Source of the DNA: Escherichia phage vB_EcoM_G2540-3
DNA: 64,000 nucleotides
Sequence record: MK327944.1
Direction: 5' to 3' (one strand)
Shown here: positions 42,832 through 51,127 of the stretch, one piece after another
Position numbering within the stretch: the stretch's first letter is position 1
Layout: every line of letters begins with the position of its first letter
Notes under the pieces: generated by a model
Told to the model about the DNA's origin: nothing
Databases searched by the model: none
The model's input: only the letters and a program-made list of their open reading frames with translations
Translations under genes and position numbers: made by a program

Positions 42832-45095
42832 TACAATTTACACGCTGCGCAATCATCGGCTTTTGGAGTTTCTATTTCATAATCATCAGTACCAGAACCA
42901 TCGCGGGTATTATGATAATAGAAATTTTTAATGCCATAATACCATCCGTATAGCATGTCATCAATCATTATTGACATTGGAACCTTTCCTTTTGGAAAAA
43001 TCTGTGGGTCATAATATGTATTCGCTGAAGCTGATTGACACACCCATTTCAGCATAATAGCTACCTGCGTAAGATAAGGTTTATTACCTTTCTTAGCTAA
43101 TTTCCACGTATAATCATATAGGTCTATGTTATGCTCAATATTGGGCACGACTTGATTAAAGGAACCCTCTTTTGATTCTTTAACAGAGACTGGTCCACGT
43201 GGAGGCTCGATACCGTTTGTACTGTTAGAAACTTGGGAAGATGACTCACATGGCATAAGTGCTGATAATGTGCTATTACGGATGCCAAAGAGCTTAAGGT
43301 CTTCCCGCAGCGCCGACCAGTCACAAACGTATTTTGGAGCTGCGATTTGGTCAATCTTTTTATTGTACCAGTCGATAGGTAATTCGCCTCGAGACCAACG
43401 AGTGTCTGAATAATATTCGCAAGGTCCTTTTTCTTTGGCGAGCTTAATGGATGCTTTAATGAGTCCATACTGTAATCTCTCAAATAGTTCATGTGTTAAA
43501 TCGTTAGCATCTTCATAAGAAGCAAAGTTACTTGCCAGCCAAGCTGCATAGTTAGTAACACCTACACCAAGGTTTCGACGCTTTTTAGCTTTTTCTGCTT
43601 CAGGAACTGGATATCCTTGGTAATCCAAAAGATTATCAAGAGCACGAACTTGAACTTCTGCTAATTCATTAATTTTATCTTGGTCTTGCCAATCGAAGTT
43701 ATCCAGCACAAATGCAGATAACGTGCACAATCCAATTTCAGCATCAGGACTATTCACATCATTTGTTGGAATAGCAATTTCACAGCACAAGTTACTCTGA
43801 CGAATAGGTGCCTTTTCACGAATAAACGGAGTATAGTTATTCGTATTATCAATGAACTGTACATAAATTCTTGCTGTTCCTGAACGTTCAGTCATGAGCA
43901 ATTCAAATAGTTCACGGGCTTTAATACGCTTTTTACGAATATTAGGGTCTTTTTCTGCTGCTTCGTATAATTCACGGAAACGGTCTTGGTCTTTAAAATA
44001 AGAATAATAAAGCTCTCCACCCATTTCATGTGGACTAAACAAAGTAATGTAATCGTTCTTTCCAAAACGTTCCATCATCAAATCATTCAGCTGGACACCA
44101 TAATCCATATGACGGATACGGTTTTCTTCTACGCCTTTGTTATTTTTCAAAACGAGAAGATTTTCAACTTCCAAATGCCAAATAGGATAATAAGCAGTAG
44201 CAGCGCCGCCACGAATTCCGCCCTGTGAACATGATTTAACAGCAGTCTGAAAATGTTTCCAAAAAGGAATAACACCAGTATGACGCACTTCACCTGTGCC
44301 AATCTTAGAACCTTCGGCACGAATCATACCAACGTTAATGCCGATTCCAGCTCGCTTGGAGATATATTCAACAATTGAAGCAGAAGCTTTGTTGATAGAC
44401 TTCAGCGAATCACCTGCCTCAATAACAACGCATGAACTAAACTGTCGAGTTGGAGTACGACATCCAGCCATAATAGGAGTTGGCAGTGAAATCTGTCGAG
44501 TAGATACTGCTTCATAAAAACGAATAACATGTTTTAATCTGTCAACAGGTTCATCTTGATGCAATGCCATTCCAATAGTCATAAATGCAAACTGCGGAGT
44601 TTCATAAATTTGACCAGTGGTTTTATCTTTAACGAGATATTTTTCTTTTAATTGCATCGCTCCGGAATAAGTAAATTCCATATCCCGCTCGTGCTTAATT
44701 TTTGATTCTAAAAATGTAATTTCTTCTGCAGAATATTTTGACAACAATTCAGGGTCGTATTTACCTTCATTTACACAGTAAGAAATATGGTCAATAAATG
44801 AACGTGGTTCATATTGTCCATAAACATGCTTACGAAGAGCAAACATTAAACAGCGTGCAGCTACATATTGATAATCAGGCTCTTCAACCGAAATAGAATT
44901 CGCAGCAGCCTTAATTACAATGGTTTGAATGTCATCAGTGGTCATTCCATCACGGAGATATGATTTAATATTTTCATATAATTCATAAGGATCTACAGAT
45001 GTTCCTTCAGCTGCCCAAGATAAAACTTTAATAATTTTTTGCGGGTCAAAGCTTTGAGAAACACCACTACTTTTGATAACATTAATTAATTGCAT
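42831..45095 (-). CDS. nrdA: ribonucleotide reductase large subunit NrdA
   Basis: 754 aa; class Ia RNR alpha with ATP-cone N-terminus. Confidence 0.95.
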   Translation of the reverse strand: MQLINVIKSSGVSQSFDPQKIIKVLSWAAEGTSVDPYELYENIKSYLRDGMTTDDIQTIVIKAAANSISVEEPDYQYVAARCLMFALRKHVYGQYEPRSFIDHISYCVNEGKYDPELLSKYSAEEITFLESKIKHERDMEFTYSGAMQLKEKYLVKDKTTGQIYETPQFAFMTIGMALHQDEPVDRLKHVIRFYEAVSTRQISLPTPIMAGCRTPTRQFSSCVVIEAGDSLKSINKASASIVEYISKRAGIGINVGMIRAEGSKIGTGEVRHTGVIPFWKHFQTAVKSCSQGGIRGGAATAYYPIWHLEVENLLVLKNNKGVEENRIRHMDYGVQLNDLMMERFGKNDYITLFSPHEMGGELYYSYFKDQDRFRELYEAAEKDPNIRKKRIKARELFELLMTERSGTARIYVQFIDNTNNYTPFIREKAPIRQSNLCCEIAIPTNDVNSPDAEIGLCTLSAFVLDNFDWQDQDKINELAEVQVRALDNLLDYQGYPVPEAEKAKKRRNLGVGVTNYAAWLASNFASYEDANDLTHELFERLQYGLIKASIKLAKEKGPCEYYSDTRWSRGELPIDWYNKKIDQIAAPKYVCDWSALREDLKLFGIRNSTLSALMPCESSSQVSNSTNGIEPPRGPVSVKESKEGSFNQVVPNIEHNIDLYDYTWKLAKKGNKPYLTQVAIMLKWVCQSASANTYYDPQIFPKGKVPMSIMIDDMLYGWYYGIKNFYYHNTRDGSGTDDYEIETPKADDCAACKL

Positions 45096-45411
45096 AAGTC
45101 CTCAACTTGAAAATCGTCTTTAAACAATCGGTTAACTATATGAGCTATTATATCACCATGACACGGCTTTGGTTTACATGTGCATCCTAGCCTCATTCCA
45201 CGTAAAGGCTCTAAATGTGCTTTAGTTATTTCTCCGGATTTAATTCGACGTATAAAATCTTTTTTGAATAATTCAATGGCAGCCTCCCGGCTGCCAGCAT
45301 CTTTACCGACGTAATTTCCCAAAATGTACCACGGTGAATATTAACATCAAAGTCGGATTTATATTTATTCACTACCTGGCATAGACGGCCCGCGCGGTGA
45401 TAATTCGTCAT
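45086..45411 (-). pseudogene. DUF4326-like gene split by a single-base frameshift in a G-run
   Basis: Frame A from ATG 45411 gives ...FDVNIHRGTFW; frame B continues GNYVGKDAGSREAAIELF...LGCTCKPKPCHGDII; one extra G in ttttggg would fuse them into 108 aa. Confidence 0.45.
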
Positions 45412-45640
45412 ATTGTTTTTCCGTTAAAACAGTAATATCATAGTAACAATCTGAAGAAGTTTTAACTGTAGAAATTTTATTATCAAAATACTCACGAGTC
45501 ATTTTATGAGTATAATATTTTTTGCCATAAATGATAATAGGCTGATTTGGTCCTGGAACTTCTAATTCACTTGGGTTAGGAAGTGTAAAAAGAACTACAC
45601 CAGAAGTATCTTTAAATCGTAAAATCATATATCCTCGCAA
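45365..45640 (-). CDS. hypothetical protein
   Basis: 91-aa ORF between td exon 2 and the DUF4326-like gene. Confidence 0.45.
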
Positions 45641-45651
45641 TTAAATTAAAA

Positions 45652-45963
45652 TTATACCGCCATTTTTCCTTTCAAGACACCGTGGGACTGATAATCTTTG
45701 AGAACGAAATCTTTAGGCCTGAGTTTAAGAACATATTCCAATTGTTCTTTAGTAGAAAGATAACGGAATTTATAAGGCAATCCGCCTATTACCAGTTCAC
45801 AAAGCTCTTTAGGTTCACGACGCAAAATTTCTTTGCACTGTTCTACATGATTCATATAGATATGAGTATTACCACCAGAAAATATCAAATCTCCTGGAGT
45901 AAGATTACACATCTTAGCTACAATATGAACTAACGCAGCATATGATGCAATATTAAACGGTAG
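45652..45963 (-). CDS. td: thymidylate synthase, exon 2
   Basis: LPFNIASYAALVHIVAKMCNL... is the C-terminal part of ThyA; intron ends ...CUGAACAUAAUG immediately before CUACCG. Confidence 0.9.
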   Translation of the reverse strand, partial: LPFNIASYAALVHIVAKMCNLTPGDLIFSGGNTHIYMNHVEQCKEILRREPKELCELVIGGLPYKFRYLSTKEQLEYVLKLRPKDFVLKDYQSHGVLKGKMAV

Positions 45964-46979
45964 CATTATGTTCAGATAAGGTCGTTAATCTTACCCCGGA
46001 ATTATATCCAGCTGCATGTCACCATGCAGAGCAGACTATATCTCCAACTTGTTAAAGCAAGTTGTCTATCGTTTCGAGTCACTTGACCCTACTCCCAAAA
46101 GGGATAGTCGTTAGGCATTTATGTAGAACCAATTCCATTTATCAGATTTTACACGATAAGTAACTAATCCAGACGAAATTTTAAAATGTCTAGCTGCATC
46201 TGCTGCACAATCAAAAATAACCCCATCACATGAAATCTTTTTAATATTACTAGGCTTTTTACCTTTCATCTTTTCTGATATTTTAGATTTAGTTATGTCT
46301 GAATGCTTATGATTAAAGAATGAATTATTTTCACCTGAACGATTTCTGCATTTACTACAAGTATAAGCAGAAGTTTGTATGCGAACACCGCACTTACAAA
46401 ACTTATGGGTTTCTGGATTCCAACGCCCGTTTTTACTTCCGGGTTTACTGTAAAGAGCTTTCCGACCATCAGGTCCAAGTTTAAGCATCTTAGCTTTAAC
46501 AGTTTCAGAACGTTTCTTAATAATTTCTTCTTTTAATGGATGCGTAGAACATGTATCACCAAACGTTGCATCAGCAATATTGTATCCATTAATTTTAGAA
46601 TTAAGCTCTTTAATCCAAAAATTTTCTCGTTCAATAATCAAATCTTTCTCATATGGAATTTCTTCCAAAATAGAACATTCAAACACATTACCATGTTTGT
46701 TAAAAGACCTCTGAAGTTTTATAGAAGAATGGCATCCTTTTTCTAAATCTTTAAAATGCCTCTTCCATCTCTTTTCAAAATCTTTAGCACTTCCTACATA
46801 TACTTTATTGTTTAAAGTATTTTTAATCTGATAAATTCCGCTTTTCATAAATACCTCTTTAAATATAGAAGTATTTATTAAAGGGCAGTCCTACAATTTA
46901 GCACGGGATTGTCTACTAGAGAGGTTCCCCGTTTAGATAGATTACAAGTATAAGTCACCTTATACTCAGGCCTCAATTA
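45964..46979 (-). mobile_element. td group I intron (1016 nt) carrying I-TevI
   Basis: 5' end UAAUUGAGGCCUGAGUAUAAGGUGACUUAUACUUGUAAUCUAUCUAAACGGGGAACC on - strand right after exon 1 ...GGT; 3' end ...GGGGUAAGAUUAACGACCUUAUCUGAACAUAAUG. Confidence 0.9.
46111..46848 (-). CDS. I-TevI: intron-encoded GIY-YIG homing endonuclease I-TevI
   Basis: 245 aa; MKSGIYQIKNTLNNKVYVGSAKDFEKRWKRHFKDL... GIY-YIG domain, C-terminal zinc finger and DNA-binding region. Confidence 0.9.
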   Translation of the reverse strand: MKSGIYQIKNTLNNKVYVGSAKDFEKRWKRHFKDLEKGCHSSIKLQRSFNKHGNVFECSILEEIPYEKDLIIERENFWIKELNSKINGYNIADATFGDTCSTHPLKEEIIKKRSETVKAKMLKLGPDGRKALYSKPGSKNGRWNPETHKFCKCGVRIQTSAYTCSKCRNRSGENNSFFNHKHSDITKSKISEKMKGKKPSNIKKISCDGVIFDCAADAARHFKISSGLVTYRVKSDKWNWFYINA

Positions 46980-47528
46980 ACCCAAGAAAACATCTACTGA
47001 TCGTTGATACCACTGAAGGTCAAGATAACCATTACGCACATTAAACTGATAGAACATATGACAGGGCGGTAATGCCATCTGCTTGAGTTCAGCTGGATTC
47101 CATGCCGACACAATTTGACGTCTATCATTGGGAAATGTTTTAATACGATTAACAACTTCTACAATTTGATCTACACCACCAAAATCACGCCACTGTTTTC
47201 CGTAAATTGGACCAAGTTCACCGCTATGATAACCTAAGTCTTTGGCCTGGTTTTCGTAGTTTTCATCCCAAATTGTTTTTCCTGCAATTAAAGATCCATG
47301 AGTACGTTGACGTAAATCATTTACGTTAGTACTTCCTGATAAGAACCACAATAACTCAGAAATACACGCATTCCAGGCGAGCTTCTTGGTTGTTACTGCA
47401 GGAAAACCTTTAGTTAAATCCCAGCGCAATTTAGTACCGAACAAAGCAATTGTTCCTGTGCCTGTTCGGTCATCAGTTTCATAGCCATTTTCAAAAATGT
47501 CTTTAATTAAATCTTGGTATTGTTTCAT
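46980..47528 (-). CDS. td: thymidylate synthase, exon 1
   Basis: 183 codons MKQYQDLIKDIFENGYETDDRTGTGTIALFG...RSVDVFLG. Confidence 0.9.
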
Positions 47529-47572
47529 TTAGTACCTTATATAAATTATAATACATTTTATGAAGCTAATAA

Positions 47573-47932
47573 TCAATACGGTTTAGCATCAAATTTTCTT
47601 TCAATTTCAGGCGTGAAATATAATTCTTTACCGCGTTTGGAAAAGCGACCAATAATATGATAATTATTCTCATCAAACGTAATATTGCCAATATCCATAG
47701 CTTTCAACCAAATATCGATATTTCTGTCAAGCTTTATATCAAAATTCCAATACGGAGAACTATTACCGAAAATACTACAAGCGGATTCAGTGAAACAGCT
47801 GCTATAAATCTTGTCTTTAGGAACTACTAATTGATAGACGCCTTTAATAAACTGAGGACCCTGCCATTTTGGTTGTTTCGCGTCTTTTTCTAATAGAATA
47901 GGGTAATAATTAAAATTCATATTTTCCGCCAC
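47573..47932 (-). CDS. hypothetical protein between frd and td
   Basis: 119-aa ORF; no motif recognised. Confidence 0.5.
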   Translation of the reverse strand: MAENMNFNYYPILLEKDAKQPKWQGPQFIKGVYQLVVPKDKIYSSCFTESACSIFGNSSPYWNFDIKLDRNIDIWLKAMDIGNITFDENNYHIIGRFSKRGKELYFTPEIERKFDAKPY

Positions 47933-47940
47933 GCGTTATT

Positions 47941-48528
<588 letters not shown>

Positions 48529-48771
48529 TCAAAACCCCCTTTCAATAAACCATTCAGTGGCTTTATTAGCATCAAAGAATAATTCTTCATATGTCTTTTC
48601 TTTGTTTTCAAAGACTGTCACACAAACACGTTGACATTCTCCACAGTATTCTTCTGACATGCTCAAAGCGTCAGAAAACATTTCATTAAATTCATTTAAA
48701 TCAGGATTATGCAATGCGTTAAAAATTGCATAATCGAATTCATCATTCATAAATTCAAATACAAAAATCAT
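48529..48771 (-). CDS. hypothetical protein (frd.1-like)
   Basis: 80-aa ORF. Confidence 0.5.
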   Translation of the reverse strand: MIFVFEFMNDEFDYAIFNALHNPDLNEFNEMFSDALSMSEEYCGECQRVCVTVFENKEKTYEELFFDANKATEWFIERGF

Positions 48772-48779
48772 ATTATCTC

Positions 48780-49115
48780 CTAATATAAAGGATCGGGAAT
48801 ATATCCACTGGCTTTAATCATTTTAATTAACGTTAACATTCCTTTATTAACTGCTTGTGAGATTTCATTAAAAACTTCATCACTAAAAAGTTCTAACACG
48901 CCCTTCTGAACTTTTAATTTACAACCAACAATTTCGTCATCGCCTATAGTAAATTCGTTTCCGCCAATTCCACCGAAAAACTTAATTACGCCAGTTAACT
49001 GTCTTCCACGAGAATATGGGTCGTGTGATAAAGTAATATGAGTCACCCCAGGTACAGTTTTAAATTGGCAGCGAATGTTTACTTGTGAAATTCCAGTTAC
49101 GTGAATGTCAGACAT
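48780..49115 (-). CDS. hypothetical protein (frd.2-like)
   Basis: 111-aa ORF. Confidence 0.5.
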   Translation of the reverse strand: MSDIHVTGISQVNIRCQFKTVPGVTHITLSHDPYSRGRQLTGVIKFFGGIGGNEFTIGDDEIVGCKLKVQKGVLELFSDEVFNEISQAVNKGMLTLIKMIKASGYIPDPLY

Positions 49116-50218: not shown

Positions 50219-51127
50219 TTAAAGGTCATTCAAAAGGTCATCCAGGTCTGTGTCATCAGCACTAGATGAACTGCCAGAGCTTGAGCTCATAAAATCATCT
50301 TCAGTTTTTGTTTTGAAGTCATCAACATTGAATGCATCCAAATCATCAGCAACTTTATCGGCTTTCTTAGCGGCAGTTGCTGCGGCACCACCCATAGCAG
50401 CAGTTCCCATAACTTGACTGAACTTAGTGCTCAGTTCTTCAAACGATTTGAATTTATCTTTAGAAGTCATTTCAGAAAGGTCAACCATTTGTTCGAACAG
50501 TTCTTTCTGGAAAGATTCATCATCAATGTTTGGAATCGCAGATTGATTCAGGAATTTAGATTCATCGTAGTTACTAAAACCAGAAACTTGTTTAACTTTC
50601 AGTACAAAGTTAGCACCTTCCCACGGACAAGTTACATCAACCGGAGTTTCACCCATTTCAACATCAACTGCAATCATTGCATTGATTTTATCCCAGATTT
50701 TCTTACCAAAACGGTATTTAAATACTTTACCTTCATTTTCTGGAGCAGCTGGGTCTTTTACTACAAGAATGTTAGCCCAGTAAGAAGTTTTGCGTTTAAC
50801 AAGACCGTACTCTTTATTGTCAGTGTTATACAAATCATTTTTACTGATGTACTGACATACTGGACAAGAATCGTAATCACCGTGGGTAGATGAACAGTTT
50901 TCAATATACCATTTACCATTTTTCTTGAAACCGTGATTTACAAGAATTGCGAATGGTGCTTGTTCATCATTTTTAGACGGAAGAAAACGAATTACTGCTT
51001 GACCGTTACCCGCATTGTCGAGTTTCAGTTTCCACTCGCCTTTATCTTCAGAAGAAAAACCACCTTTATTTCCAGCCAGTTTAGCCATTTGTGCAGCGAG
51101 TTCAGCAGTAGATTTACGTTTAAACAT
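50219..51127 (-). CDS. 32: single-stranded DNA-binding protein gp32
   Basis: 302 aa; [17 protein letters not shown]...; Ser/Asp-rich acidic C-terminus; late-promoter motif upstream at about 51214. Confidence 0.95.

Follow-up and report, generated by a model that had tools for sequence, protein, structure and literature searches.

What is the small open reading frame (ORF) that separates frd and td in a T-even phage, when the same two genes overlap in T4? In T4, frd and td share 4 nt (ATGA) with nothing between them, in agreement with the initial annotation, which described the two genes as adjacent or overlapping. The DNA analyzed here (hereafter, the window), a stretch of 64,000 nt from Escherichia phage vB_EcoM_G2540-3 (MK327944.1), is a segment of a T-even (Tequatrovirus) phage genome with these genes all on the minus strand, and it carries an ORF of 119 aa between frd and td, with short gaps of 8 nt after the frd stop codon and 44 nt before the td start codon, exactly as first described (Table 1). 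The flanking genes of the window encode Frd and Td that are 87% and 91% identical to their T4 counterparts, respectively.

Table 1. Features of the frd-td region in the window, and the 68-aa ORF found in other phages.
Feature	Coordinates	Strand	Remark
frd-td ORF as listed	47573..47932	minus	from the ORF list; 119 aa, GTG start
Preferred coding sequence of the frd-td ORF	47573..47920	minus	115 aa plus stop, ATG start; member of PHROG 1928
Four-codon extension up to GTG (47932-47930)	47921..47932	minus	probably untranslated
Shine-Dalgarno-like GGCGGA	47930-47925	minus	inside the four-codon extension, 5 nt upstream of ATG 47920
frd (dihydrofolate reductase)	47941..48525	minus	194 aa; upstream neighbour of the ORF
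td exon 1 (thymidylate synthase)	46977..47528	minus	downstream neighbour of the ORF
I-TevI	46111-46848	minus	inside the td group I intron, between exons 1 and 2
td exon 2	45652-45966	minus	beyond the group I intron
Gene 32	50219-51127	minus	from the gene list of the window
Three frd.x ORFs		minus	listed between gene 32 and frd
Spacer from ORF stop to td ATG	47529..47572	minus	44 nt; holds td ribosome-binding site AAGG and promoter-like TTAGCTTCA...TATAAT
Left TAAATGAAA copy	47939..47947	minus	spans the frd stop codon
Right TAAATGAAA copy	47523..47531	minus	spans the td start codon; 416 bp from the left copy
68-aa ORF (phrog_9550)	L026 557-763; L004 3188-3394; L007 3148-3354		L026 is Shigella phage Sf21

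The start codon of the small ORF is more likely the in-frame ATG, which lies 20 nt from the frd stop codon and gives a product of 115 aa. This start is preferred because the Shine-Dalgarno-like element stands in front of it, whereas the GTG has no such element, because the homologues begin with MNFNYY, and because gene callers predicted the 115-aa form on 341 contigs versus the 119-aa form on 14. A similar element, GGTGAAAAGCG, precedes the ATG of the small ORF in locus L034. The inspection of codon usage and ribosome-binding site that had been proposed in the initial annotation placed GGCGGA before the ATG and not before the GTG, and found codon usage in line with that of the neighbouring genes (GC3 0.28; codon index 0.68, with a window mean of 0.67 and sd of 0.04). 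In the spacer before td, TTAGCTTCA is followed by TATAAT / TAATTT, which resembles a T4 middle (MotA-type) promoter and is regarded as putative. This spacer is only 13-15 nt long in the F2 and REP1 variants.

The frd-td ORF is a real gene under selection. Compared with its counterparts in T2, AugustSocin, and an IMG/VR contig (L011), it shows 10-14 synonymous and no non-synonymous differences, corresponding to pS of 0.16-0.22, pN of 0, and dN/dS of about 0. The 115-aa protein is 100% identical to that of T2 and 99-100% identical within Tequatrovirus, whereas Frd has alleles that are only 87% identical. As well, the frd-td interval has no terminator-like site on the minus strand, so the ORF is probably co-transcribed with its two neighbours. 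The gene is dispensable, since T4 lives without it.

Hundreds of GenBank records already carry the gene as a "hypothetical protein", and no paper among those searched mentions it. A 701-nt query across the region matched 569 phage records, 352 of them over its full length, while tblastn with the protein matched 580 GenBank phage records, including 362 at ≥90% identity (among them T2, RB14, RB27, RB32, RB33, RB51, and AR1) and 218 below 60%. The diverged homologues span 26-66% identity, and the nearest relatives outside Tequatrovirus are 60-66% identical, the closest among 15 billion proteins standing at 66%. An exhaustive profile search against 1.84 billion cluster representatives recovered no more than about 20 true clusters, each made up of stand-alone proteins 95-116 aa long; two long matches (P0025 and P0026) were discarded as low-complexity repeat proteins. 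The sole family match is PHROG 1928, of unknown function, to which the protein aligns over its full length (phrog_1928 HMM, E = 9.5e-36, residues 8-115 against profile positions 2-125 of 126), and the motif residues Q16, W19, G27, Y29, and G91-R-F-x-K95-x-G97 are common with its distant members. Pfam, NCBIfam, and PADLOC searches with 10 diverse members gave no match, which bears out the initial remark that the product has no recognizable motif. No second copy was found elsewhere within the window, and an Rfam scan of positions 45000-49000 gave nothing significant.

The order frd-ORF-td was present in 23 of the 23 loci first collected and in five of five metagenomic contigs. The loci compared came from Tequatrovirus, Kanagawavirus, Jiaodavirus, Gelderlandvirus, Marfavirus, Moonvirus, Winklervirus, Kagamiyamavirus, Erwinia phage Cronus, and the five contigs, and at least nine T4-like lineages have homologues between the two genes. 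The family is confined to T4-like phages, with its locus fixed between frd and td and with zero to three tandem copies. In most genera, the homologue overlaps both the 3' end of frd, often via an ATGA junction, and the following gene, and translation in step with Frd and Td would follow from these overlaps. In the window and in T2, the small gene overlaps neither neighbour (spacers of 20 and 44 nt), so its coupling would be looser. Directly after the homologue, most genera have a paralogue of about 115-124 aa, which also belongs to phrog_1928 (hhalign probability 99.6%, E = 2e-24).

Other occupants of the interval were also observed. A metagenomic contig (SRR28387184; L028 2245-3288) carries three tandem paralogues of 148, 106, and 95 aa between the genes for DHFR and thymidylate synthase, together with an unrelated 76-aa ORF. 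In some genera, an unrelated 68-aa ORF (phrog_9550) lies immediately before td; its product is very basic (pI about 10), and it is the sole frd-td insert in many Tequatrovirus phages. The Tequatrovirus version shares 69-79% identity with the third frd-td ORF in Kanagawavirus and Marfavirus, while Frd is far less similar between these genera. Tequatrovirus thus shows three frd-td states, namely the T2 type with the small ORF alone, the Sf21 type with the 68-aa ORF alone, and the T4 type with nothing. In Acinetobacter phage Kimel, a more distant T4-like phage (Twarogvirinae), frd and td are separated by a 78-aa ORF of another kind (L033 1837-2073), so the interval is variable well beyond Tevenvirinae; in Kimel, a homing endonuclease gene lies just beyond td. 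In Escherichia phage F2 (L027 476-1093), extra A residues near the frd stop codon extend Frd to 205 aa, and the extended Frd overlaps the small ORF, which is 93% identical to that of the window, by 11 nt.

Removing 416 bp flanked by the 9-bp direct repeat TAAATGAAA from the T2-type sequence gives exactly the T4 junction. The region measures 537 bp in the T2 type and 121 bp in T4, and the difference is exactly the spacing of the two repeats. In teqdroes and some other phages that carry the ORF, both flanks are 100% identical to T4, and only the 416-bp segment differs. Searched with a junction-specific 40-mer, the T4 state was found in only 32 GenBank records, more than half of which are T4 itself. 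TAAATGAAA comprises a stop codon, a start codon, and a Lys codon. The window has 10 copies of it where 3.5 would be expected, and a count of 10 was not attained in any of 100 shuffles. TAAATGAAA is therefore a common gene-junction motif, which offers ready microhomology and makes weak evidence for a target-site duplication. Judged from these sequences, the T4 state most likely arose by a microhomology deletion between two copies of this motif. However, Mosigvirus, Dhakavirus, and Gaprivervirus have the ATGA overlap of T4 as well, and the left repeat runs on as ATGAAATAA, a sequence reminiscent of a vestigial td start, ATGAAACAA, so the opposite direction of the indel is possible too: the Tequatrovirus lineage might have regained the segment long ago by insertion into an overlapped junction. 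The 9-bp repeat by itself is no proof of a deletion in T4, given the commonness of the motif and the overlap in three sister genera. TAAATGAAA acts as gene-junction punctuation, and whole genes might be lost precisely via the microhomology that it offers.

The neighbouring genes vary in their own right. In the window, a frd-ORF-td spacer of the T2 type occurs together with a td group I intron of the T4 type that carries I-TevI (td region 45652-47528), while td of T2 is uninterrupted (861 nt); the intron and the small ORF are therefore not mutually exclusive. With only about 600 bp from the small ORF down to the intron site, co-conversion during homing could replace the ORF. Frd of the window is 87% identical to both T4 and T2 Frd and 100% identical to that of a Yersinia phage ZN18-like contig (L014). 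Two allele classes of Frd seem to exist in Tequatrovirus (112 records at ≥90% identity and 398 at 80-90%), and the small ORF is 99-100% identical across both.

The protein encoded by the window is about 13 kDa and rich in aromatic residues (20 of 115), and the family is soluble and mildly basic, with a median pI of 8.7. An AlphaFold model built with a 26-sequence alignment was confident (pLDDT 92, pTM 0.85), with predicted strands at residues 6-12, 27-34, 38-40, 48-50, and 62-64, a helix at 68-76, and further strands at 80-82, 86-96, and 99-104. The predicted fold is a small β-barrel with one helix and an OB-like topology. The invariant or nearly invariant residues (L9, Q16, W19, G27, Y29, G91, F93, K95, G97, and F102) map to the loop that follows strand 1 and to the final hairpin. 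A Foldseek search against viral models returned only uncharacterized T4-like phage proteins, two profile searches of PDB sequences gave best matches of E = 0.02 or higher to unrelated proteins, and no sequence profile of a known OB family was matched. Neither a catalytic motif nor a nuclease, DHFR, or other enzyme signature was found in the protein.

The small ORF is best explained, at roughly even confidence for the explanation as a whole, as a genuine member of the T-even cluster gene 32-frd-td-nrdA that is inherited vertically and can be dispensed with. As to its function, the product may be a non-catalytic binding module at the thymidylate/folate node, a tentative reading held with low confidence. 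Such a module could serve as an accessory partner of Frd, of Td, or of the phage dNTP-synthesizing complex, presumably binding through its conserved D-x-x-Q-x-K-W loop and G-R-F-x-K-x-G hairpin, and copies of it would be made in step with Frd and Td wherever the genes overlap. The protein identity of 99-100% within the genus, beside Frd alleles of 87%, argues for a conserved partner and against an arms race. Gene order is conserved throughout T4-like genomes regardless of function, and the position between frd and td is therefore weak evidence for a shared function. Moreover, T4, Mosigvirus, Dhakavirus, and Gaprivervirus all retain Frd and Td without the small gene, so the two enzymes do not need its product. 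A more specific proposal, which we consider rather improbable, is that the family would form a non-catalytic part of the phage thymidylate cycle, bridging Frd and Td or tethering both to gp32 or DNA at the replication fork. In bifunctional DHFR-TS enzymes, the junction region links the two activities, which provides an analogy for the bridging of Frd and Td. Such a component, if real, would have escaped notice owing to the loss of the gene from T4, the model phage.

Nearly as likely as a binder at the thymidylate node, and likewise uncertain, is a host-directed or anti-defence small binder, for which the frd-td position would be merely inherited gene order. Small early ORFs of T-even phages commonly have host-takeover or counter-defence roles, and the protein is small, non-enzymatic, and dispensable. 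Related phages carry from 0 to 3 copies of it, three alternative frd-td states coexist in one genus, and its identity between genera is 27-47% versus 75-85% for Td, all of which would suit such a role. However, the protein matches neither PADLOC nor any anti-defence family, it is almost invariant within the genus (dN/dS about 0), unlike typical arms-race genes, and it was never found outside the frd-td interval. A lesser possibility is that the protein would be an OB-like nucleic-acid binder, acting either as an RNA or translational regulator of the frd-td-nrd messages or as a single-stranded DNA binder that links nucleotide synthesis to the fork; we regard this as unlikely.

Far less probable is that the gene was recently inserted by horizontal transfer or is a mobile element, a reading that takes in the initial idea of an insertion as well as the label "putative homing endonuclease" in some GenBank records, and to which the absence of the gene from T4, the 9-bp direct repeat around the segment, and the uninterrupted overlap in three sister genera might seem to point. 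However, the protein has no nuclease motif or family match, its conserved residues are not nuclease-like, and at 115 aa it is far below the size of known free-standing homing endonucleases. The gene occupies the same locus in all lineages and is not found sporadically at varied sites; its composition is native; its divergence in L034 and L035, contigs of the nearest relatives outside Tequatrovirus, is in step with that of neighbouring genes (ORF 63-66% versus gp32 61-62% and Frd 47-48%); its closest relative outside Tequatrovirus, at 66% identity, leaves no recent donor visible; and the repeat is the same junction motif that recurs through the window. A chance ORF in a non-coding spacer, with nothing in its favour beyond the absence of any annotated function, has a negligible probability and is refuted by conservation, namely by dN/dS of about 0, by homologues with conserved motifs at identities down to 26%, and by the confident structure prediction. 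Recent insertion, a mobile element, and a chance ORF are essentially excluded.

Of the initial view that an accessory gene had been inserted into the nucleotide-metabolism operon, the accessory part stands, as the gene is dispensable and missing from T4, while the inserted part is not supported, as the gene is native to the interval in every related locus examined; the possible ancient re-insertion in the Tequatrovirus lineage would speak in its favour. A foreign origin is contradicted by the overlaps with frd, the paralogue, and td in most genera, by GC3 and codon usage of native type, and by the fact that the ORF is the majority state in the genus (362 records versus 32 with the T4-type junction). 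The initial annotation had also held that presence of the ORF at the same position in T4 and all relatives would tell against an accessory gene; it is present there in most relatives, but not in T4 itself.

Several database labels turned out to be misleading and can be corrected. The label "putative homing endonuclease" is unsupported, given that 10 diverse members have no Pfam or NCBIfam match; "putative dihydrofolate reductase" fails, since there is no DHFR_1 match and the real DHFR is the upstream gene; and "putative glucose-1-phosphate adenylyltransferase", also found in GenBank, is unsupported by any enzyme signature. The practical value of these results is modest, as this is an ordinary catalogued hypothetical gene. 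If the protein does bind Frd or Td, it would be a part of nucleotide metabolism that is invisible to T4-centred work.

Compared with known systems, the gene is the same as the other members of phrog_1928 in T-even phages, including RB32ORF229c and the unnamed frd-td ORF of T2, with the same genome position and no difference. The second frd-td ORF of Moonvirus, Winklervirus, Gelderlandvirus, Kanagawavirus, Marfavirus, and Kagamiyamavirus shares the motifs L-L-x-x-D-x-x-Q-K-x-W, H-G-x-Y, and G-R-F-x-K-x-G with it, but has about 15-20 extra residues (APTIxxYKRxPxKY) inserted past the tryptophan and is absent from Tequatrovirus. In terms of the predicted fold, the nearest comparison is with the OB-fold nucleic-acid-binding domains (S1, SSB/PriB, RPA/Teb1, and HIN), the OB fold being a five-stranded closed β-barrel in which a helix separates strands 3 and 4. 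Finally, the ATGA junction of T4 has the same flanking genes as the window but is without the 416 bp between the TAAATGAAA copies, and the overlapping frd and td of T4, which are often cited, represent a minority state among relatives; the stretch between the two genes is a small cassette site of variable content, with room for zero to three copies of this family or for the unrelated 68-aa ORF.
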